Shown: piece after piece, positions 15,880 through 49,596 of the stretch
Position numbering within the stretch: the stretch's first letter is position 1
Layout of the letters: every line of letters starts with the position of its first letter
Assembly (NCBI GenBank): GCA_964016885.1
Contig: OZ024751.1
Span: forward strand, 7,316,001-7,380,000
Length of the DNA stretch: 64,000 bases
Origin: Eledone cirrhosa
Taxonomy: Eukaryota
Direction of reading: 5' to 3'
Notes under the pieces: model-generated
What the model was told of the DNA's origin: nothing
Database searches by the model: none
Seen by the model: only the letters and a program-made list of their open reading frames with translations
Made by a program: the position numbers and the translations under genes

Positions 15880-15888
15880 GTATATATA

Positions 15889-17659
15889 TTTATTAAAATA
15901 ACAGATTAAAGTTTAAGCAAAGAATCGCTGCTTTCGCCCTTAACGGGATCTTCTGAAACTAATAAAGTCAATCTGTAAACGCAGAACTGGATATTTCAGA
16001 AAACGTTGCAACCGGAGGGCTAGATCGTATAACGGTAATAAAAGACCATGTGACCTCTGCGCCGCTGAGGCCCTGGAAATACTGTACGCCACAGACCACA
16101 TCTTAAACAAAAAATCTGAGGCAATTTCGGCTTGTAAACGTAAACTGCAAAAAACTTTCCTGTATTACAGCCCCACGTTATACCCTAACGGATAGCATGA
16201 TCTATACGTGGATATTTGACGTCTTGATGTGGGAGCTAAGTATATGTTTTGTTTATTCTTTTACTTACTTGCATAGGTAAGTATATATTACCCGTATGTT
16301 TTGTGAAGGTATGTATACCTTCTCGTAGGTATATTTGACTGTTATGGCGTATCATTTTTACATATTCTGGTATTTAGGGTTTGGCTATGTGTATACGGGA
16401 GTTTTGCGTCTGCGTGAGTATGCAGGTTCGTACGTATGGTGGGTGTGTGTATATGTGTACTTATTGTTTTAGTTGACTTACGTCTCCGAACATTCGTGTA
16501 TTTATTTGTAGGTATGTGTGTGCGCTTGTTATATACGTATTTATTTACTTATATACGTTTATATAATTATTTATTTATTTGTACACAAGCATACACACAC
16601 ACACATATTTATTTGTGCGTGGTTTTGTATACCTATGGTAAGGTTTTGCGTATGCTTGTGTATGTACGTATCTGTTTGCGTGGATGTATTTATTTGTTTC
16701 TATTACTTCTGTATTGTATTTATTTATTTTGTTCTTAACTCTGTAGCGGAGATTCATTTGGTCTCCTAGTTAGAATTTTAGTCTATGACTTCTGCTTTAC
16801 CATTTACGTGGTTTTGTCTTTGCGTGCTATTGTTCTCCACGCTCCACGTATGACTTATTATCTTCGTTTTTTCGTTCATTGCCAGAGAAGGTCTCTATGC
16901 ACCACCTTAAATAACATTAGTCTACGAACTCTTTTATACCATAAACGTGGTTCTGTCTTTGCGCGTAATTGTTTTTCACCGCTCCTAATAATTGTTTCTA
17001 CTTTAGGCACAAGGCCAGCAATTATCCAGTTCATTACTGGTACTTTATTTTATCGACCCTGTAAGAATGAAAGGCAAAGTCAACCTCGGCGGGATTTGAA
17101 CTCAGATCGTAAAGGGACGTAACTATGCTGGAAAGCATGGCGTCCGAGCCTCTACCGATACTGCCAATCCACCGCTCCTAATAATTGTTTCTACTTTTGG
17201 CACAAGGCCATCAATTACCCAGTGCATTACTGGTACTTTATTTTATCGACCCCGTAAGGATGAAAGGCAAAGTCAACCTCGGCGGGATTTGAACTCAGAT
17301 CATACAGGGAGGTAACTCTATGCTTCAAAGCATGGCGTCCGACCCTCTACCGATACTGCCAATAATGACGTATTATTCGTTTTTTCCCGTTCTTTGCCAG
17401 CGAACGTTACCACGAACCAAAGTATCGTCTTCCTGTCTTCCTCCGGTTGCAACGATTTTTGAAATATCCAGTTCTAGGTTTACAGATTGACGTTATTAGT
17501 TTCAGAAGAATCCGTTAGGGCTGAAAGCAGCGATTCTTTGCTTAAAATTTAATCTGTTATTTTAATAAATATTTGCTCTACGGTTCTTATATATTTAATA
17601 TATATTTTCCTTATCGAGCCCTCTTTGGATTTTAGTCTTCAATTTTATTATTATTACTA

Positions 17660-17660
<1 letters not shown>
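15889..17660 (+). mobile_element. 5'-truncated PLE (3' UTR only) with ~130-bp inverted terminal copy
   Basis: 15889-16019 is the reverse complement of 17441-17570. The body is the reverse complement of 25970-27238, where it adjoins a GIY-YIG relic. Confidence 0.8.
16993..17360 (-). mobile_element. Tandem dimer of tRNA-derived SINE inserted in the PLE 3' UTR
   Basis: Two ~190-bp units containing GATGAAAGGCAAAGTCAACCTCGGCGGGATTTGAACTC. They are absent from the sister copy near 26270. Confidence 0.8.
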
Positions 17661-23500: not shown

Positions 23501-25969
23501 AGTATGTATGTGTGTCTGTCTGTGTGCGCGTTTGTGAATGATCGGGGGAAAATTAAACAGACAGTATTCTTTTATTAAAATGAAACATGTATAACATCAA
23601 ATAGCGGGATACCATTTACCATTGTAAAACTTTTTTCTTTAACTATTATATTAAACAAATTTCTGAAACCAAATATTATTTTCAGATCTAACTACTAATG
23701 AGAGAGTGGTGAAATTTATTATCATAGACATCAAATATACGGTTTGCGAGATATTTTTTTTATATTTCGTTTCAATATTCCTGTCATTTAATATCATTTG
23801 AAAAAGTTTTTATATATAGTCACGAATGATAACAGATATTCTTTGTTGGACGTGTAATAAAAATATATAAAAAAGAACTGTTGAATTATTGTGTATGAGA
23901 GATAAAAAATCGACAATATTTACTGAGACGCTCTGGGAATTCTGAGCATTTACAAGCAAAATAGAGAATAATTTTAATAGAGTCTCTAGTATGCATGAAA
24001 ACAATTACTAAAAAAACTGTCCTTAAAATACAATATTAATAAAAATATAGAATAAAACATAATGAAAGGCATGACTAGAATAAGCAGATTTTCATAACTT
24101 CATCATTTTTAGAATATATTATATTTGTATATATTTTATATCTTTCATATTATACATTAGTGGTTATTTAATAAAATCACGTACTGTAGGTATCACAGTG
24201 GAAGTGCAAGGAAAAAAACCCGTCTTGAATTGCTACACTGATTATTATATTTTATTTTCTTCTTATAAGATGAGACTTTTTAATACATATGTTATACATG
24301 TTGAATACCTATTACTATATTTCAAACGTAAAACATACAAAAATTACAAACTTCTTTCAGGCCAGTAAGATGTCGGTTATTTTTCAGAAAAAACTTATTG
24401 AATAAAAATTCAAATTTAATCGATATACTTCAAGGTTTCATCAAAGAATTATTGAATTAATTCATAGTTGAATATAGGAAATTGGAGATGGAATGATTAT
24501 ATTATGGTGCCCAAACATATCGTTCTTCTATATTTATATTTTGTAAGAACGCTACAACCATATCTCTAATAAAGGTGCATTTTAAATACCTCCACTAGAA
24601 GTTGATTTTCAGATTATTTATTATATGCTTTCAGGATCTGTAATCAAAGTATATATTCCCAATTATTAAAGATTAATTGTGGTATTTTATTCTATATTCC
24701 CGTGTGAAATGCACGTAATTGAGTCACATTTGTGTTTTAAACCTTTTGTACAAGTTCATTGTGTTATGATCTACATCATATTTATCACATCGCCAAAGCC
24801 TTTTTTTTATAGCTTATTCCAATGAGCTATACTTTGTTATAGGTAATGTGCAGAAATACTCTAAAGAATTTGAATTTGAAGTACAATTATATTTGTTAGG
24901 TATTCTACTCATATACGATGTGAGAATGAATGAAAATGTGGTTTCTTTCGTACAGAACATATATGTCCTTAACTACATTTTACTGCGCAGTTCGTAAACG
25001 ATTATATAACACCGAAATATAAATATGTGGATTGCGTTCGTCTTTGATATATTGATATAATCAAATCTCACCATTTTGATTAAAGTTATACAGAGTATTT
25101 TAAAAATGCATTTCAACCTATGCAACTTGATTAATTGAAACTATACAGTATATAAACATACATATAATTCGGGTCACAGTTTGTTATATTTTGAATTACT
25201 AGCATCTGCGTTGTTTTAGCTGTCTATCTGAAATCAACTTGACTGTTAGATTGAAAAAAAAAAGATAAAATACAAATGCCATAACTAAGAAAATGTATAT
25301 GTCAACAAGTTAAATCTTCAGAATAAAATATGCATAAACGACGTATACATCGCGTAACGTGGATTATGTGCTTAGAAATATACGCAAACGACGTACAACT
25401 GAAATCTAGTATGATAAAGAGAAAAAAATACGGACATTAAAATTGGATATTCGATAGAACTTTGCACAAACTAACTTTAAAGATAATAAGAAAACATCGA
25501 AAAATGAATAAAAGAAATACTCAAAATGTCTATAGATTTGAAAATGTGTTAATATTATTCATAGTATTCAAGTATGCTAAAATCAAATACTGAGATAAAT
25601 ATGACTTTAAGTAAGATTAAGAGACGACAATATCATTTTCAATAGAGATGTTCAACAGATGCAGACAATACAATTATAATACATTTAATCTTACGACGTA
25701 TTGGAATTGCTAAATACAATGAAATGTTCATCAGAGATGTATTTGCAGAAAATAGTCTCTATAAAATACAGTAGAGTAAGATTAGATTTATTAATGGTTA
25801 GCATAACTAAGAATACCCAATGCGTAAAATGCGTTAGGTGTTAAATAATGACACGAAACATAATTTTATACCACATGGGACAAGAAGTAATTAATGTATT
25901 ATTATTTGACAAGCGCATTGGTATTCATTGGCGTCAGCACAGATTCTCACAGTGAGGTATATATATATA

Positions 25970-28134
25970 TAGTAATAATAAGAAATTTGAAGACTAAAAT
26001 CCAAAGAGGGCTCGATAAGGATAAATATATATGAAATATATAAGAACCGTAGAGCAAATATTTATTAAAATAACAGATTAAAGTTTAAGCAAAGAATCGC
26101 TGCTTTCACACTTAACGGGATTTTCTGAAGCTAAAAAAGTCAATCTATAAACGCAGAAGTGGATATTTCAAAAACCGTTGCAACCGGAGGAAGACAAGAA
26201 GACGATACTTTGATTCGTGAAAACGTTCGCTGGCAAAGAACGGCAAAAAACGAATAAAACGTCATTAATAGCAGCGGTGAAAAACAATTAGGCGCAAAGA
26301 CAGAACCACGTTTATGGTATAAAAGAGGTCGTAGACTAATGTTCTCTTAGGTGGTGCATAGAGACGTTCTCTGGCAATGAACGAAAAAACGAAGATAATA
26401 CGTCATATGTGGAGCGTGGAGAACAATAGCACGCAAAGACAAAACCACGTAAATGGTATAGCAGAAGTCGTAGACTAAAATTCTAACTAGGAGACCAAAT
26501 GAATCTCCGCTACAGAGTTAAGAACAAAATAAATAAATACAATACAGAAGTAATAGAAATAAATAAATACATACACGCAAACAAATACGCACATACACAA
26601 GCATACGCAAAACCTTACTATAGGTATACAAAACCACGCGCATATAAATGTGTGTGTTTGTGTATGCGTGTATACAAATAAATAAATAATTATATAAACG
26701 TATATAAATAAATAAATACGTATATAACAAGCGCACACACATACCTACATATAAATACACGAATGTTCGGAGACGTAAGTCAACTAAAACAAGAAGTACA
26801 CAAATACACACACCCACCATACGTACGAACCTGCATACTCACACAGACGCAAAACTCACGTATACACATAGCCAAACCCTATGTACCAGAAAATATAAAA
26901 TTATACGCCATAACAATCAAATATACGTACGAGAAGGTATACGTACCTTCACAAAACATACGGGTAATATATACTTACCTATGCAAATAAGTAAAGAAAT
27001 AAACAAAGCATATACATAGCTCCCACATCAAGACGTAAAATATCCACATATAGATCGTACGATCCGTTAGGGTATAACGTGGGGCTGTAATACAGGAAAG
27101 TTTTGTGCAGTTTATGTTTACAAGCCGAAATTGCCTCAGATTTTTGTTTAAGATGTGGTCTGTGGTGTAGAGTATTTCCAGGGCCTCAGCGGCGCAGAGG
27201 TCGCAAGGTCATCTATTTCCGTTATACGATCTAGCCCTAGCTAGGATCTTCCAGTGTAACTTATATTGGGTGTGGTTGTCTTTAAGACTCCAGATATAAA
27301 CTGAAAGTGACGTCATATTCCTTCTTAGAGGGTAACGAAAAGAATGGGTATGCATGTAAAGACGCTGCTTGAAACTATTGGCGGTTAACCCTATGTAGGC
27401 CCTACGGGACGTGGGTCTTACAACCTTACATTTGTAGACAATGTTACTAGAGAGCCATTTCCCGGATAGGGGGCAATCAGCCCGATTCCTACAATTACAG
27501 TTAGTACTAACTACAGGGTTGCACGTGTTCCTACGGCTAGGTAGTTTAGCTAAATTTGAAGCTGTGATGTTATGTGCAAGGTTAGGATCGTAGAGTAAGA
27601 AATTTTAATAGTATTTCTATTAAAAATGTTACTATATTTATGTGTAGGGGGAAAATGCTTCGTAATAAGGGAAAGAAAGATCTTAGCTAATGGTGTGGCT
27701 ACCTCCATATTATATGGTGGGCTATACCAACAAATACGACGGGATCTATTTCTTCTAGGTCTATTTTAATACTCTGTATATGCTACCTTATCGATAAATC
27801 CACTTCGAGCAAGAGCTTCATTGTAATAAGTGGAATGGTCGTTGAAAATACGCTCGTTGGTGGAAAGACGGGAAAGCCTCAACGAAACGTTTCTTACCAG
27901 GTTCTTGGTTAAGCTGGCAGGATGGTTGGAATGCTTGCTTATGTAATTAAGCGTATCATTCGGCTTTCTATACGGGTTGCTAGCAAACGTTTCCACCAAC
28001 CAAAGTATCGTCTTCCTCCGGTTGCAACGTTTTTTGAAATATCCAGCTCTGCGTTTACATATTAACTTTGTTAGCTTCAGAAGATCCCGTTAAGGGTGAA
28101 AGCAGCGATTCTTTGCTTAAACTTTAATCTGTTA

Positions 28135-28140
<6 letters not shown>
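25970..28140 (-). mobile_element. 5'-truncated PLE with GIY-YIG relic and inverted terminal copy
   Basis: Minus strand 27240-27990 encodes PYRKPNDTLNYISKHSNHP and CNCRNRADCPLSGK..IVYKCKV..AYIGLTANSFKQRLY. About 27980-28140 is the reverse complement of 26064-26236. Confidence 0.85.
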
Positions 28141-28183
<43 letters not shown>

Positions 28184-28504
28184 CAGGAGAGAGACACCAC
28201 CGACACACACACACACACACACACACAGACACCACACACACATACACACACATATATATATATATATATATATGTATATAAATATGTATGTATATAAATA
28301 TGTATGTATATGTATATATATGTATGTATATATATATGTATAATTATGTATGTATATATATATATATGTATAAATATGTATATATATCTATATATGTATA
28401 TATATGTATGTATATATATATGTATACATATTTATATATATATATATTTATATATATATATATATGTGCTTTTACGATTCTCTAGAAAGGCCGGAAGATA
28501 GGTA

Positions 28505-28549
28505 AATATTGCTGATGAGATGTAACAACATCGAAACTAGTCCAATATT
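28505..28549 (+). ncRNA. Canonical minimal type-I hammerhead ribozyme
   Basis: Stem I AATATTG/CAATATT (7 bp); CTGATGA; stem II GATGT-AACA-ACATC; GAAA; ACTAGT stem III; GUC triplet (cut after 28542). Confidence 0.92.
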
Positions 28550-28970
28550 CCTTGTCTGTCTTTCTGGAGAATAGAGGAAAGGTGTTTCCTCGAAAACCAG
28601 TATGACTCTAAAAACCGGTTTGTCTGTGTGTTTACATACAGAATAGCTGGACACTCACAGTAAAGTGTCCAGTGAAAAACTCGGTACATCTACATATGTA
28701 CACGTGTGTGTATTCATATGCATACTAGTATTTCAGTATACATATGTGGATGTACATTTTTAACTTAATTGTTTAAGCGTCAGTCATACAAAAGTGAGTT
28801 ACAAACGAAGCGAAATTTAATTTCGTTTCGTTATTTGTTTTTATCGTCTCCGCTGAACCGGTACGTACACACGCTCTATGCAAATTAGTCTGCCCACTAC
28901 TAATTTTCATAGAAAAAGCATATAACGATATGTGCTTTTACGATTCTCTAGAAAGGCCGGAAGATAGGTA

Positions 28971-29015
28971 AATATTGCTGATGAGATGTAACAACATCGA
29001 AACTAGTCCAATATT
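28971..29015 (+). ncRNA. Canonical minimal type-I hammerhead ribozyme (second unit)
   Basis: Identical to 28505-28549, 466 nt downstream. Confidence 0.92.
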
Positions 29016-29359
29016 CGTTGTCTGGCTTTCTGGAGAATAGAGGAAAGGTGTTTCCTCGAAAACCAGTATGACTCTAAAAACCGGTTTGTCTGTGTGTTTA
29101 CATACAGAATAGCTGGACACTCACAGTAAAGTGTCTAGTGAAAAACTCGGTACATCTACATATGTACACGTGTGTGTATTCATATGCATACTAGTATTTC
29201 AGTATACATATGTGGATGTACATTTTTAACTTAATTGTTTAAGCGTCAGTCATACAAAAGTGAGTTACAAACGAAGCGAAATTTAATTTCGTTTCGTTAT
29301 TTGTTTTTATATATATATACATATGCATATATATATGTATATATAAATATATTTGTATA

Positions 29360-29416
<57 letters not shown>

Positions 29417-29419
29417 ATA

Positions 29420-29516
<97 letters not shown>

Positions 29517-29540
29517 GTATATATATATAATATATATATA

Positions 29541-31079: not shown

Positions 31080-32474
31080 CACAAGATAATCAACAAAAAA
31101 CCCATCAAACTCTCCTACAGCACCACACCTAACTTCGCACAAAACATCGTCTCCTCAAACAACAAAAAACTCAACCCTATGGAAGAAATAACCTCGACAT
31201 CAGTGGAGAGCCGACCAGGAGAGGTAACTTCCCTGATAGATCTACGTGCCCCCTCAACAACAAATGCCGAGAATGTAACGTGATCTACCAGTGCAACGTG
31301 AGGACGGACACCTCCAACAAAGCTTATATAGGATAACCGCGTGTGACTTCAAGACCCGACTCTACCAGCACCGACATACTTTCCGAAACCCGGTCCGGCG
31401 ACATGCCACTACACTTTCGGGACCTCCAAGATAATAATATAACCTACAATCTCACTTGGGGTCTACTGTCCAGAGCTAACTCTTACACGGGATGACGCCG
31501 TCTGTAACTTATGCTCGGAGGAAACATTGCAAATGTTGTTTTCGAAGGACCAACTCCTATACAAGAAGGACGAACCGGTAACCGCATGCAAACACAGATT
31601 GCGTAGGACTAACCTCGCCCTCAAACCCCATAACGACCCTGGTGGGTAGACAAGGGCTGATACCCTCCCTCCCCCTCCCACACTTGCCGAATAAGTTAGG
31701 AGAAACCCCAGCTTACATAGTTAGATGAATCACTTTTATTTTATTTTCATCATTGTCTACTTCTTCCCCCTGTCTCATCCTATCATTTCCTTCCACCCCC
31801 TATTTTCTTCCTCGACTGCTTTTCCCCTTTCGCCTACCCCCATGCAGCCCCTCGGGCCTCTGTAGCATCAGTTCCCCCACCCCTGTAATTTTAAGATAGT
31901 AAAACGTATTCGGCCAATTCTAACTACTTATAGCAGACGTGTTAAACCCCTTTAATTTTGTATCAGTGTTGGTACTACTCAATTTCTGCAAGTTTTTTTC
32001 TATTCTCAACTTATTAACTTGTAATTGTAAGATAGCATCGTGATTTTCTTTTGTTCATTTCTCACTATCTAATTTTATATATTATTTTATTTCTTTCTAT
32101 TATCTTTTATTGTCTCCTACTCTCATTCGATTTACCTATTCTATAACCTCCCTCTTCCACTTCTATAACCTCCCTCATACACTATCCTTAGAATCTGCTG
32201 TATACATATCACTTCAAGGCTTGACCGCTTCACTCACTTCCCTATTGTTCTCCAGGCAACTTCAGCCACCCCTACCTCCCACCAAATGCCATGTTAGACT
32301 TATTTGTGTTTACAACAAATTTTAACCAATCCTCTTGACAACTACATCTTTCCATATGAGGAAGTACCCCCTTGACAAGTTCGGCTATTTATTCACCAGG
32401 CTAAACATTCTAATTTACTCTAGAAATAGCCGTCGAAACGGCTTGAGCTCTGCCGTCGGGATCATACTTTTTCC

Positions 32475-37409: not shown

Positions 37410-37465
37410 ACTGCTATATATATTTCGATGATAGCCATTGAATGGCTATGTCCTCATCAGGCAGT
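37410..37465 (-). ncRNA. Type-I hammerhead motif in a probable PLE 3' end (about 37363-37700)
   Basis: Reverse complement ACTGC CTGATGA GGAC-ATAGCCATT-C-AATGGCTAT-CATC GAAATATATATA GCAGT: 5-bp stem I, long stem II, AUA triplet. Upstream on the same strand a frame reads FPDGLN, resembling a PLE C-terminus. Confidence 0.75.
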
Positions 37466-38888: not shown

Positions 38889-39122
38889 TATTTAGAAACA
38901 CACAGATACATGCGGACACACACATATACATGAATGCATCCACACCCAACCGTGAGTTAATGGTGCCAACCTTACCGATGTTGCTCAATGAATGACTGGG
39001 ACAGACCAATCCGGTTGAACTAGACTGAACCAGTATCAGCGTCAAAAATACATTATGAAGAGAGAAGAAACATTTAGATATAATTAGTAATAAAATGTAT
39101 CATACCTAAACTGCTCCTAGAT

Positions 39123-39212
39123 TCCTCGACTACGTAGTTTCGTGGCATAAACAAAAACAGTACATCATAAAGATATAGAGCCCTTGCGAGGTCTGCCGAC
39201 TTATCAAGAGGA
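39123..39212 (-). ncRNA. Hammerhead U3:A8 variant, family D
   Basis: Reverse complement of 39577-39666. Confidence 0.75.
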
Positions 39213-39576
39213 TACCTCATTTTACTAGCTTCAAGAACGCGTCTACACGACGTGAGAAATAATCCCAAAAGGCGGAGGGGGAGATAGTCACGCGATATAA
39301 CGGTCGAGAAACAGAGCTAAGCCTCTTATAACGCCCGAAGAAAATACCACGGAGGCGGAGGGGGTATTTATATCGAAGCCGTAGAAGAGGTGTTAAAGGA
39401 GGCGAGAAGTATGAGTAATGGCAGCTTTCCAGCAGTCACCACACTTCAAATATTACTCGACCAGAGGCTTAGCTCTGTTTCTCGACCGTTATATCGCGTG
39501 ACTATCTCCCCCTCCGCCCTTTGGGATTCTTTCTCACGTCGTGTAGACGCGTTCTTGAATCTAGTAATATTAGGTA

Positions 39577-39666
39577 TCCTCTTGATAAGTCGGCAGACCT
39601 CGCAAGGGCTCTATATCTTTATGATGTACTGTTTTTGTTTATGCCACGAAACTACGTAGTCGAGGA
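39577..39666 (+). ncRNA. Hammerhead U3:A8 variant with large stem-II insertion, family D
   Basis: Stem I TCCTC/GAGGA; TTGATAA; stem II GT(C)GGCA...TGCC-AC; GAAA; palindromic ACTACGTAGT stem III; GUC triplet (cut after 39661). Confidence 0.78.
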
Positions 39667-40169
39667 ATCTAGGAGCAGTTTAGGTATGATACATTTTATT
39701 ACTAATTATATCTAAATGTTTCTTCTCTCTTCATAATGTATTTTTGACTCTGATACTGGTTCAGTCTAGTTCAACCGGATTGGTCTGTCCCAGTCATTCA
39801 TTGAGCAACATCGGTAAGGTTGGCACCATTAACTCACGGTTGGGTGTGGATGCATTCATGTATATGTGTGTGTCCGCATGTATCTGTGTGTTTCTAAATA
39901 TATTGTTCATAACTCCCTCCGGTCGAGTAATCTTTGAAGTGTGGTGACTGCTGGAAAGCTGCCATTACTCATACTTCTCGCCTCTTTTACCACCTCTTCT
40001 ACGGCTTCGATATAAATACCCCCTCCGCCTCCGTGGTATTTTCTTCGGGGTTATAAGAGGCTTAGCTCTGTTTTTCGACCGTTATATCGCGCGACTATCT
40101 CCCCCTCCGTCTTTTGGGATTCTTTCTCACGTCGTGTAGACGCGTTCTTGAAGCTAGTAAAATGAGGTA

Positions 40170-40259
40170 TCCTCTTGATAAGTCGGCAGACCTCACAAGG
40201 GCTCTATATCTTTATGATGTACTGTTTTTGTTTATGCCACGAAACTACGTAGTCGAGGA
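40170..40259 (+). ncRNA. Hammerhead U3:A8 variant, family D (second plus unit)
   Basis: Same as 39577-39666 shifted by 593. Confidence 0.78.
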
Positions 40260-40325
40260 ATCTAGGAGCAGTTTAGGTATGATACATTTTATTACTAATT
40301 ATATCTAAATGTTCCTTCTCTCTTC

Positions 40326-40453
<128 letters not shown>

Positions 40454-46419: not shown

Positions 46420-48170
46420 GTAGTATAGTATGACTGTTGAAAATATATAGTATAGTATAGTATTACTGTTGAAAATATATAGTATAACATTACCGTTGAA
46501 AATATATAGTACAGTATTACTGTTGAAAATATATAGTATAGTATAGCAATACTGTTGAAAATATATAGTATAGTACAGCATTACTGTTGAAAATATATAG
46601 TATAGTACAGTATTGCTGTTGAAAATATATAGTATAGTACAGTATTGTTGTTGAAAATATATAGTACAGTATTACTGTTGAAAATATATAGTATAGTATT
46701 AATCTTGAAAATGTATAGTACAGTATTACTGTTAAAATATATAGTATAGTATTACTGTTGAAAATATTTAGTATAGTATATTATTACTGTTGAACATATA
46801 TAGTACTAGCTGTGGTACCCGGCGTTGCACAGGATAAGGTATTTTGGAACGCGGGCCACCAACAGACCTAATCGTGGAAAAACTGCATGCCTGGACAATA
46901 TGTAAAGAAAATAAATCGAATACTCTGATGGCTGGATGATCTTTAAGATTTTCCTCGATGAAGTAGGAAAAATGCAGGTTTTCACTTAATATGGGCCCTG
47001 CGGGATCAAGAAAATGAATATTTTTTATGTGCACAATATGCCTTGAAATTTCGGGATAAAACGGCTAGACGTAACGCCTCCAAAAAGCCCTAAGAAGCTG
47101 AAAAAGGTTTTTCACCTAATGCGGGCCCTAAGCCATGAGAAAGTTGAATTTTCTTTGCTTACCGTATGAAGAAGAGACTGGCTAATACATAGTTACAATT
47201 TCAAGGAAATCGGTCTGACCTAACCCCTCAAAAAACCCCTAAAATTCTTAAAAACGCAATTTTTCACCCAATGCGGGCCCTATAAGTTAAAAAAAAGTTG
47301 AATTTTTTATGTGCTTAAAACTCCCTGAAACATAAGTAATACATATGTAAAGTTTGAAAAAAATCGGTTGGCTACTTCTCGAGTTTTATCTATTCAAACT
47401 CACACACACACACACAGACAGACATCCTCAGGGAAGTGACGTAATGCAGACAGACAGACATACAGACATATATTATAAGGGCGCGACGTTATATGTATGT
47501 ATCAATCTAAAAAGAGAAAGACTAAGAATTATATAGCGAGATCGCTAAATGCGGTCCCTAGGGCATTGAACAATTAAACTTTTTGTTTTGCTCAGAACAT
47601 ATATATTACACGTGTAAAGGTAGAAAACAGTCGGTTTGTTGGTTCTCGAGTTTTAGGGATTCGAACTCACACACACACAGACAGGCATCCTCAGTGTTAT
47701 ATATATAGATAGTATAGTATTACTGTTGAAAATATATGGTATAATATTACTATTGAAAATATATAGTACAGTATTAGTGTTGAAATATATATATATAGCT
47801 GACGTACCTAGCATCGATTGGATAAATAGACGATGAGCCGTCTGTGTAGTATAGTATTACTGTTGAAAATATATAGTATAGTATAATATTGCTGTTGAAA
47901 ATATATAATGTAGTACAGTATTACTGTTGAAAATACATAGTATAATATTACTTTTGAAAACATAGTATAGTATTATTATTGAAAATATATAGTACAGTAT
48001 AACTGTTGAAAATATATAGTATATTATTACTGTTGAATATATATAGTACAATATTACTGTTAACAATATATAGTATAGTATTAATGCTGAAAATATATAG
48101 TATTAATGTTGAAAATATATAGTATATTATCGATTTTGAAAATATATAGTATAGTATTACTGTTGAAAAT
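46420..48170 (+). repeat. 27-32-bp minisatellite (TAGTATAGTATTACTGTTGAAAATATA)n in two blocks
   Basis: Blocks 46420-46804 and 47711-48170, split by an inserted element. Confidence 0.9.
46805..47710 (+). mobile_element. Non-autonomous Helitron/Helentron-like element
   Basis: Starts ACTAGCTG..CCCGGCGTTGCACAGG (terminal hairpin), has internal subrepeats and CAGA/CA microsatellite, and ends TTATATATATAGAT. It interrupts the minisatellite. The class is assigned from recalled terminal pattern only. Confidence 0.6.
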
Positions 48171-48674
48171 ATGTACACGAATATATAATTATACATATAA
48201 TTAATTAAATGTTGGTCAGAAGCGAAGTCAATGCAGACAGGCTGTCATGCAGACATATATTATAAACGCGCGACGTTATAGCTATGTATCTATCTAAAAA
48301 GACAGATTACGGAAGAGAGAGGAATGTCGGATTGTGTATATTATATATAATAAAGTACCAGTAATGTAATTTCTGGCCTAGTGCCAAAAATAGAAACACT
48401 TATACTTCTTGTTTTATACAACTGTCAATAACATGTTTATGCATGTATATAAACGTATATTTACGTATAATAGAATGCAGTAGTAACATGTACATATTAA
48501 ACTATCACTTATTTATGCTACTGTCACTATATAAATATATATATGAATGCATATATAGGGTATTTTGCAATACACTGTATGTTTAATTAAAAGCATTTCG
48601 AAGACCTTAGGCTATTGTTTTAGAGTAGTGACAGTCTCACTTACTTTAAATTTTCAGCAAACAAAGGGAGATAA

Positions 48675-48719
48675 AGCTGACAGAGCTCTGTTTCGTACTT
48701 TTTGGTACTTATCAAAGCT
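48675..48719 (-). ncRNA. Intact hammerhead, U3:A8 variant, family E
   Basis: Reverse complement AGCT TTGATAA GTAC-CAAAAA-GTAC GAA ACAGAGCTCTGT C AGCT. Confidence 0.85.
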
Positions 48720-49012
48720 AAGTACTCCACCTGTTTGCTGACAATCATGAATGTTTGATTCTTATAGAATTCTAGTAATAATCAGGAACTGATTATACAG
48801 AGCGGTTGCCGGTCAAGCTTTTAATTAAGCATACATTGTATTGCAAAATACACTATATATACATTCATATATATATCGCTATTTCAGACAACCAATTCTA
48901 ATTTTAAATTTCTGCTTGACCGGCAACAGCTCTGTATAATCAGTTCCTGATTATTCCTAGAATTCTATAAGAATCAAACATTCATGATTTTCAGCAAACA
49001 GGTGGAGTACTT

Positions 49013-49057
49013 AGCTTTGATATGTACCAAAAAGTACGAAACAGAGCTCTGTCAGCT
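49013..49057 (+). ncRNA. Hammerhead family E (A9->U mutated)
   Basis: AGCT TTGATAT GTAC CAAAAA GTAC GAAACAGAGCTCTGTC AGCT. Confidence 0.7.
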
Positions 49058-49333
49058 TTATCTCCCCTTGTTTGCTGAAAATTTAAAGTAAGTGAGACTG
49101 TCACTACTCTAAAACAATAGCCTAAGGTCTTCGAAATGCTTTTAATTAAGCATACAGTGTATTGCAAATTACACTATATATACATTCATATATATATCGC
49201 TATTTCAGACCACCAATTCTAATTTTCAATTTCTGCTTGACCGGCAACCGCTCTGTATAATCAGTTCCTGACTATTACTAGAATTCTATAAGAATCAAAC
49301 ATTCATGATTATCAGCAAAGAGGTGGAGTACTT

Positions 49334-49378
49334 AGCTTTGATAAGTACCAAAAAGTGCGAAACAGAGCTATGTCAGCT
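49334..49378 (+). ncRNA. Hammerhead family E
   Basis: AGCT TTGATAA GTAC CAAAAA GTGC GAAACAGAGCTATGTC AGCT. Confidence 0.8.
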
Positions 49379-49535
49379 TTATCTCCCCTTGTTTGCTGAA
49401 AGTTTAAAGTAAGTGAAACTGTCACTACTCTTAAACTATAGCCTAAGGTTTCCGAAATACTTTTAATTAAGCATACAGTGTATTGCAAAATACACTATAT
49501 ATAGATTCATATATATATATCGCTATTTCAGAGCA

Positions 49536-49596
<61 letters not shown>

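Follow-up and report, generated by a model that had tools for sequence, protein, structure and literature searches.

A hammerhead tandem between microsatellites

The window, the whole 64,000-nucleotide stretch of Eledone cirrhosa DNA that was analysed and to whose first letter all positions refer, contains on its plus strand a one-armed retrozyme insertion of 1.8 units (28462..29310), the 3' end of which lies at a fixed position here called site B. Segment 28462-28844 recurs at 28928-29310 with a period of 466 nt and 3 mismatches over 383 nt (28551/29017, 28559/29025 and 28670/29136), and 28845-28927 is present once, so that the copy holds 1.8 units and not 2; the initial annotation, which had described a young 466-nt direct tandem, was right about the period and the few differences. 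The 5' end is truncated at about unit position 386, with ATAT microhomology at the join. On the left lies a (TA)n/(CA)n microsatellite target (28140..28465) and on the right a (TA)n target (29308..29540), and the left-hand neighbour is a two-armed Neptune-like Penelope derivative (25969..28147) with its B and A ends in TA, within which an RT thumb and a GIY-YIG domain are found on the minus strand (27209-28089). An older, broken Penelope-like GIY-YIG fragment is located on the plus strand at 31133-31649. As had been claimed, the retrozyme has no credible ORF, its longest internal stop-to-stop frame being 60 aa, and the frame with RT and GIY-YIG that marks an autonomous Penelope-like element (PLE) is absent from it. 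A reading of the copy as LTR-internal-LTR (383-83-383) was dropped, since loci elsewhere are plain tandems whose ends are permuted; a plant-type LTR retrozyme (type III hammerhead in LTRs, target-site duplication or TSD of 4 bp) was likewise rejected, the hammerhead here being of type I and the TSD 12-13 bp long.

Two type I hammerheads lie on the plus strand, at 28494..28565 (CTGATGA core at 28512, predicted cleavage after C28542) and at 28960..29031 (CTGATGA core at 28978, predicted cleavage after C29008), each with a stem I of 7 bp, a stem II of 5 bp, a helix III of 1-2 bp with a palindromic ACTAGT, and GAAA. They had been described as identical and 466 nt apart; the spacing and the cores bear this out, but the distal stem-I extension differs (28551/29017), which leaves the second ribozyme one pair short. 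They had also been called minimal, a label to be replaced, as in the wording of the relevant part of PMC4209133 ribozymes with a short palindromic helix III are 'canonical' metazoan type I hammerheads. Rfam gives no match at gathering level anywhere in the window; the two ribozymes match Hammerhead_HH9 (RF02275; E 2.8e-8 and 3.1e-7, 39.3 and 36.1 bits) below the gathering score of 52 bits, and their helix III is shorter than that of the model.

Cleavage at the two predicted sites would yield a monomer RNA of 466 nt (28543..29008, plus strand, 36.5% GC), which bears three letters that are rare in the family (28559, 28810 and 28869) and which may be excised from a read-through transcript and then circularise. 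Folded in circular mode, as the initial annotation had proposed, the monomer is strongly self-paired (-152 kcal/mol, where 60 dinucleotide shuffles give -94.9 +/- 6.0, z -9.6), and the three hairpins named there (28574-28591, near 28650-28670 and near 28804-28832) are correctly placed and occur in the predicted fold. Efficient cleavage of such hammerheads as dimers, which had been taken as established, is described for newt and axolotl in the main text of PMC7229834, but 1 of 9 Xenopus dimer constructs was cleaved according to the text of bioRxiv 10.64898/2026.07.22.740005. Four public runs, which are contigs of uncertain kind or RAD-seq DNA, were compared with the element; a joint that 'goes back 465' in one of them (X4) was set aside, since any tandem repeat yields such a joint. 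In run X22 of organism A the helix III palindrome has a variant at window position 29005 (158 of 400 reads) that would still allow pairing in a dimer by way of G-U pairs.

A genome-wide family with two fixed ends

The exact 31-nt ribozyme core has 1,633 copies in the genome (3.0 Gb) and its reversed-pattern control has 0, and thus the hammerhead repeat is not due to chance. Wider-family cores number 19,480 and insertion junctions of the B end with TA number 2,339, each with a reversed control of 0. Subfamilies have units of 463-470 nt that are 86-99% alike, and a sister family has a 422-nt unit that is about 65-80% alike in local matches. The initial annotation's reading of the element as a retrozyme is strengthened by these copies, as the units are non-coding and tandem, the type I hammerhead covaries, the GC content is low and young copies are many and scattered. 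The class, that of non-LTR retrozymes, is already known, and it is the insertion statistics of the other copies that are new information.

The ribozyme columns are nearly invariant across 168 units, and among 15 ribozyme variants chosen from both families the catalytic core changes at its variable position alone. The ribozyme stems covary, with 6 of 14 pairs changed on both sides and a score that none of 500 shuffles reaches, a signal which is mostly one split between the two families, so that its cells are not independent events. Within the family (19 units), double changes occur at 5 of 143 predicted pairs, three of which sit in a long stem extending stem I, and the double change in stem II recurs in a contig from a separate data set (organism A, X5). 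The invariant core and the covarying stems, seen in two families, suggest that cleavage is under selection.

Other repeats in the window also carry hammerheads. A two-armed copy of the sister retrozyme lies at 752-1989, with hammerheads at 1001 (minus) and 1685 (plus) and with its ends at the two fixed sites of that family (219 and 275), and further recurring hammerhead-like cores are found at 37460 (minus), 50093 (plus) and 60824 (plus), as well as at loci L085, L087, L097 and L100; these other cores often form inverted pairs, which suggests several more two-armed ribozyme-bearing families. Separate repeat structures at 48560-49537, 38892-40334 and 46421-48172 contain a 321-nt period with an inverted part, nested inverted blocks and a 27-32-nt minisatellite.

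We sampled 84 loci, of which 39 were top-scoring, 24 lie along C1 (taken in order from the first 100 cores listed), 20 were chosen by their B-end junction and one is the window copy. Two arms in head-to-head orientation are present at 57 loci, always a minus arm followed by a plus arm (divergent). The other 27, including the window copy with its B arm, score as one-armed at an arm cut-off of 25 nt, at which the second arm of L051, L055, L056 and L063 is a stub below this length, and the retrieved stretch seems to end within L117 and L140. One two-armed locus also ran off its stretch and was dropped; among the remaining 56 complete loci, 52 combine one arm that ends at a site A with one that ends at site B, 4 have a non-standard end, and the combinations A/A and B/B do not occur. 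In the sets not selected by end, A/B is found at 39 of 39 loci with two standard ends, an outcome that independent equal choice would give with a probability of 0.5^39, or about 2e-12. Retrozyme units are present at all 20 loci selected by B end, the 10 shown in detail being retrozyme subfamilies, and three complete two-armed copies of the sister retrozyme obey the same end rule (ends 219/275).

Site A, the fixed end of one arm, corresponds to 28770-28775 on the plus strand of the window (unit 228-233; 226-234 in the sampled loci), with a second copy at 29236-29241. Site B, the fixed end of the other arm, corresponds to 28839-28844 on the same strand (unit 297-302; 296-304 in the sampled loci), and the window copy terminates at its second B (29310). 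In the predicted fold both sites lie immediately 3' of a strong hairpin, which for site B is that at 28804-28832, and contigs of the other data set (organism A, X1) stop at both sites before TA, for example at 29241. We infer that sites A and B are RT priming sites. The 'tail' from A to B (28763..28845, plus strand) varies less than any other part of the unit in a 19-unit alignment, with a mean departure from the commonest letter of 1.4%, compared with 6.0% at positions 1-220 and 4.1% at 304-430, and this region may serve as an RT-binding signal.

TA-rich flanks are present on both sides of 47 of the 52 A/B loci, and where the flanks are readable, target duplications of 13, 12 and 12 bp were found (L042, L068 and L120). 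The two arms overlap by at least 1 base at 31 of 56 junctions, abut at 6 and are separated by extra bases at 19. Arm lengths are alike (medians of 1.7 units for A and 1.6 for B, p 0.66), and the 5' ends are scattered across the unit with no pile-up at the cleavage site; an apparent excess there (6 of 139, p 0.004) was dropped as a unit-boundary artefact, because most such arms extend a few bases into the ribozyme. At L035, L038, L047 and L108 an interruption peculiar to the locus recurs in the TA flank on either side, as though both microsatellites had been seeded or enlarged by the duplicated target.

Penelope-like neighbours and related systems

The family of the left-hand neighbour, which we take to be Neptune-like from its motifs, is also present at 15886-17660 of the window, has 53,478 first-look candidates in the genome and includes open frames of 713 aa in which RT, zinc-finger and GIY-YIG motifs can be recognised. 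Searches of Pfam and PDB gave no match for the 713-aa protein, and its identity as a PLE is read from these visible motifs together with its ESM Atlas neighbours. Its ends lie in TA and fall at two sites 88 nt apart, and they are of the A/B kind in all 15 clusters with two standard ends (35 clusters scored); in one copy (L087) neither arm contains the other. A second PLE family, of Penelope/Poseidon type, is young and has 784-aa open frames (L154-L157). Across 20 loci of the Neptune-like family (L083-L102) we detected no DNA homology to the retrozyme unit and no hammerhead core beside the ORF, and across 10 loci of the Penelope/Poseidon-type family no DNA shared with the unit and no hammerhead core by the ORF, nor was a pLTR homologous to the unit found in either family (20 and 10 loci); apparent unit homology at PLE loci proved to be separate retrozyme insertions. 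The insertion footprint thus indicates the enzyme class, a PLE, and does not reach the family level, and the Neptune-like neighbour, with the same architecture, is a candidate but unproven partner family.

The element closely resembles the metazoan non-LTR retrozymes defined by Cervera and de la Pena (2020; PMC7229834), of the axolotl HHR_Amex1 type. As described in the main text of that paper, these also consist of non-coding tandem units with a type I hammerhead, a weak helix III with a palindromic loop, a GC content below 50% and a TSD above 4 bp, and they likewise occur in thousands of copies with a strongly self-paired monomer. However, the 466-nt unit is slightly above their range of 150-450 bp, and they have RNA evidence, whereas the element is described here from DNA sequence. 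The same main text, in which PLEs are a 'strong candidate' mobiliser and no more, does not contain the words 'inverted' or 'microsatellite' and does not mention head-to-head arms or two fixed ends. More recently, vertebrate retrozymes were concluded to have PLEs as both source and mobiliser (bioRxiv 10.64898/2026.07.22.740005), which agrees with our reading; the evidence set out in that text is co-occurrence and pLTR homology, whereas our argument comes from the insertion footprint, a homologous pLTR having been found in neither of the two PLE families examined, and neither 'tail' nor 'head-to-head' occurs in that text.

The architecture of the copies is also that of endonuclease-bearing (EN+) PLEs (Neptune, Naiad and Penelope/Poseidon), for which the relevant parts of PMC8557442 and PMC3846280 describe an inverted 5'-truncated copy, a tail often at one end only, partial tandems, a TSD of about 8-13 bp and a (TA)n bias. 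The retrozyme differs from these autonomous elements in having no ORF and in having multi-unit arrays in both arms, and its tail is about 70 nt long as against 30-40 (PMC8557442, PMC3846280); multicopy non-autonomous elements of Chlamys are noted in PMC8557442. For PAc, a Poseidon element of Anolis, the available text of PMC11167929 reports that in vitro the protein cleaves an AT-rich target on both strands, extends each of them and starts at two internal sites that bound the tail, as we propose for the retrozyme. In the same in vitro system insertion was independent of hammerhead cleavage and the start site showed no strand preference, whereas genomic retrozyme copies invariably pair A with B. 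Within our search, outside which most subscription journals lie, no paper was found that reports retrozyme insertions with two arms or PLEs that prime in this twin fashion.

In L1 twin priming, the second target strand primes internally and so gives rise to an inverted arm; the position of this internal site varies, and neighbouring stretches of the RNA are represented in the two arms. The retrozyme differs in that both of its sites are fixed and its arms overlap in the template.

Probable priming from both ends and its alternatives

The two arms of a locus share sequence variants. A C/T variant at unit position 222 is nearly balanced (89:79 among 168 units), and at this position the arms agree at 23 of 23 two-armed loci and no locus is mixed; at L039, L041 and L068, letters specific to the locus are present in both arms. 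When each arm was compared with about 50 others, its own partner was the closest at 19 of 48 loci and the best or tied at 37 of 48, with the arm of another locus being closer at 11 of 48. Units differ by a mean of 1.7 letters within a locus and by 9.4 between loci (25 loci with at least 3 full units); 9 of these 25 are perfectly homogeneous, and 7 have letters that all of their units share and that none of the other 24 shows, being private only among the 25 sampled loci. Homogeneous loci with fixed letters of their own fit a one-unit bottleneck followed by repeated copying. At 49 simple loci (the 52 A/B loci minus 3 with internal rearrangements), neither arm fits inside the other in 13, and lengths are compatible with fold-back in 36 (A within B in 25, B within A in 11). 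Given the non-nested arms and the similar arm lengths, both ends were most likely primed on RNA.

The fixed A/B ends, the shared variants, the non-nested arms, the 12-13 bp TSD and the Neptune-like parallel make mobilisation by Penelope likely, and we give a probability of roughly 0.6 to the reading that the element is a young non-LTR retrozyme inserted in trans by a PLE RT-endonuclease, with priming from both ends of a staggered cut. As for cleavage, circles, enzyme and order of events, hammerheads dimerised through the palindromic helix III would cleave a read-through transcript, and monomers, along with some multimers, would be circularised by a host ligase. A Penelope protein may then bind the conserved A-B region and place nicks 12-13 nt apart in the two strands of an AT-rich target, after which one target 3' end would start cDNA at A and the other at B, about 70 nt apart and most simply on one RNA molecule. 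Each cDNA would go round through the cleavage junction a varying number of times, and the two would stop at scattered points and be joined into head-to-head arms; where one end fails to prime or leaves only a stub, a one-armed copy such as that of the window would result. That PAc has no need of hammerhead cleavage and no strand preference in vitro counts against this cycle, as do the two PLE families without DNA homology to the unit and the 11 of 48 loci at which an arm from elsewhere is closer than the partner. A more specific proposal, in which a dimer of the PLE RT-endonuclease grips a single circular RNA at two sites close together and carries out two simultaneous strand-displacing rolling-circle reverse transcriptions, is tentative and seems to us possible rather than probable; if true, it would be a general origin of the inverted repeats and one-sided tails of Penelope elements.

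Priming from both ends may instead have used uncleaved linear multimers, with no circle and with long arrays formed by later unequal exchange, which we consider unlikely. Scar-free unit junctions are what uncleaved precursors would give, hammerhead mutants had no effect on PAc insertion in vitro (PMC11167929, in the available text) and 8 of 9 Xenopus dimers stayed uncleaved (bioRxiv 10.64898/2026.07.22.740005, likewise). Block duplications in the long arrays are also in keeping with it, as are two terminal units at L067 that share 24A and 50A, absent from the inner units, and mixed haplotypes common to both arms at L038 and L040, which occur there in different register. Such haplotypes, which the arms of L067 share as well, themselves argue against a pure monomer circle. 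However, homogeneous loci of 6-8 units carry letters of their own, some of them in both arms (L039, L115; also L140, L146), the absence of C/T mixing at unit 222 points to a one-unit bottleneck, and the invariant core with its covarying stems suggests that cleavage is selected. No more favoured is priming of the two ends on separate RNAs that come from one source locus and that an enzyme dimer, such as is predicted for PAc in the same part of PMC11167929, would hold asymmetrically. Strand displacement would then be unnecessary, the register offset at L038 fits, and shared variants fit if one source dominates per cell, but an extra asymmetry would be needed for A/B at 52 of 52 loci, and the locus-specific letters in both arms of L039, L041 and L068 speak against it.

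Single-end priming, with the inverted arm made by fold-back or self-priming on new DNA or on an antisense template and with the endonuclease trimming at the second site, appears improbable to us, although it would account for the shared variants and the strict A/B rule together. Self-priming on an antisense template and a tail from EN-mediated resolution have been proposed for PLEs (in the relevant parts of PMC3846280 and PMC8557442, respectively), and the 36 length-compatible loci and the junction overlaps of a few bases (31 of 56) agree with it. Against it, each arm has sequence missing from the other at 13 of 49 loci, some of which later junction deletions could mimic, the same is true of PLE copy L087, and the A and B arms are of similar length; the strict pairing of one A with one B, the shared variants and arms that are not copies of each other favour priming from both ends. 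Least credible is a DNA satellite or assembly artefact, in which chimeric reads or DNA rearrangement make the inverted arrays with no RNA step. The tandem form and the block duplications would suit it, and the inverted junctions are read here from the assembly. Against it stand the two fixed ends, the TSDs and the spread over many contigs; the same ends occur in contigs of another data set, and the architecture is shared by a coding PLE and published for PLEs (PMC8557442, in the part concerned).

Two questions are open in the literature, in the parts of the sources concerned: the identity of the enzyme that moves retrozymes in animals (PMC7229834), and the way in which PLEs come to produce inverted copies that have a tail on one side (PMC8557442, PMC3846280). 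With mobilisation by a PLE from both ends of the cut, this family would answer the former by its footprint and narrow the latter, and its 466-nt RNA, on which both start sites are mapped, offers a small substrate for work in vitro, the same genome having intact PLE frames.

The length of the arrays appears to have a partly separate origin. Variant patterns repeated in blocks at L110, L033 and an array of about 31 units (C1:5.74 Mb) suggest that array length is in part due to later duplication at the DNA level, and in the longest arrays such block repeats indicate either this or multimeric templates. In the arms of about 31 units at G000:C1:5738326-5752444 (L171, L172 and L130), and also at L110 and L117, higher-order repeats are forming.
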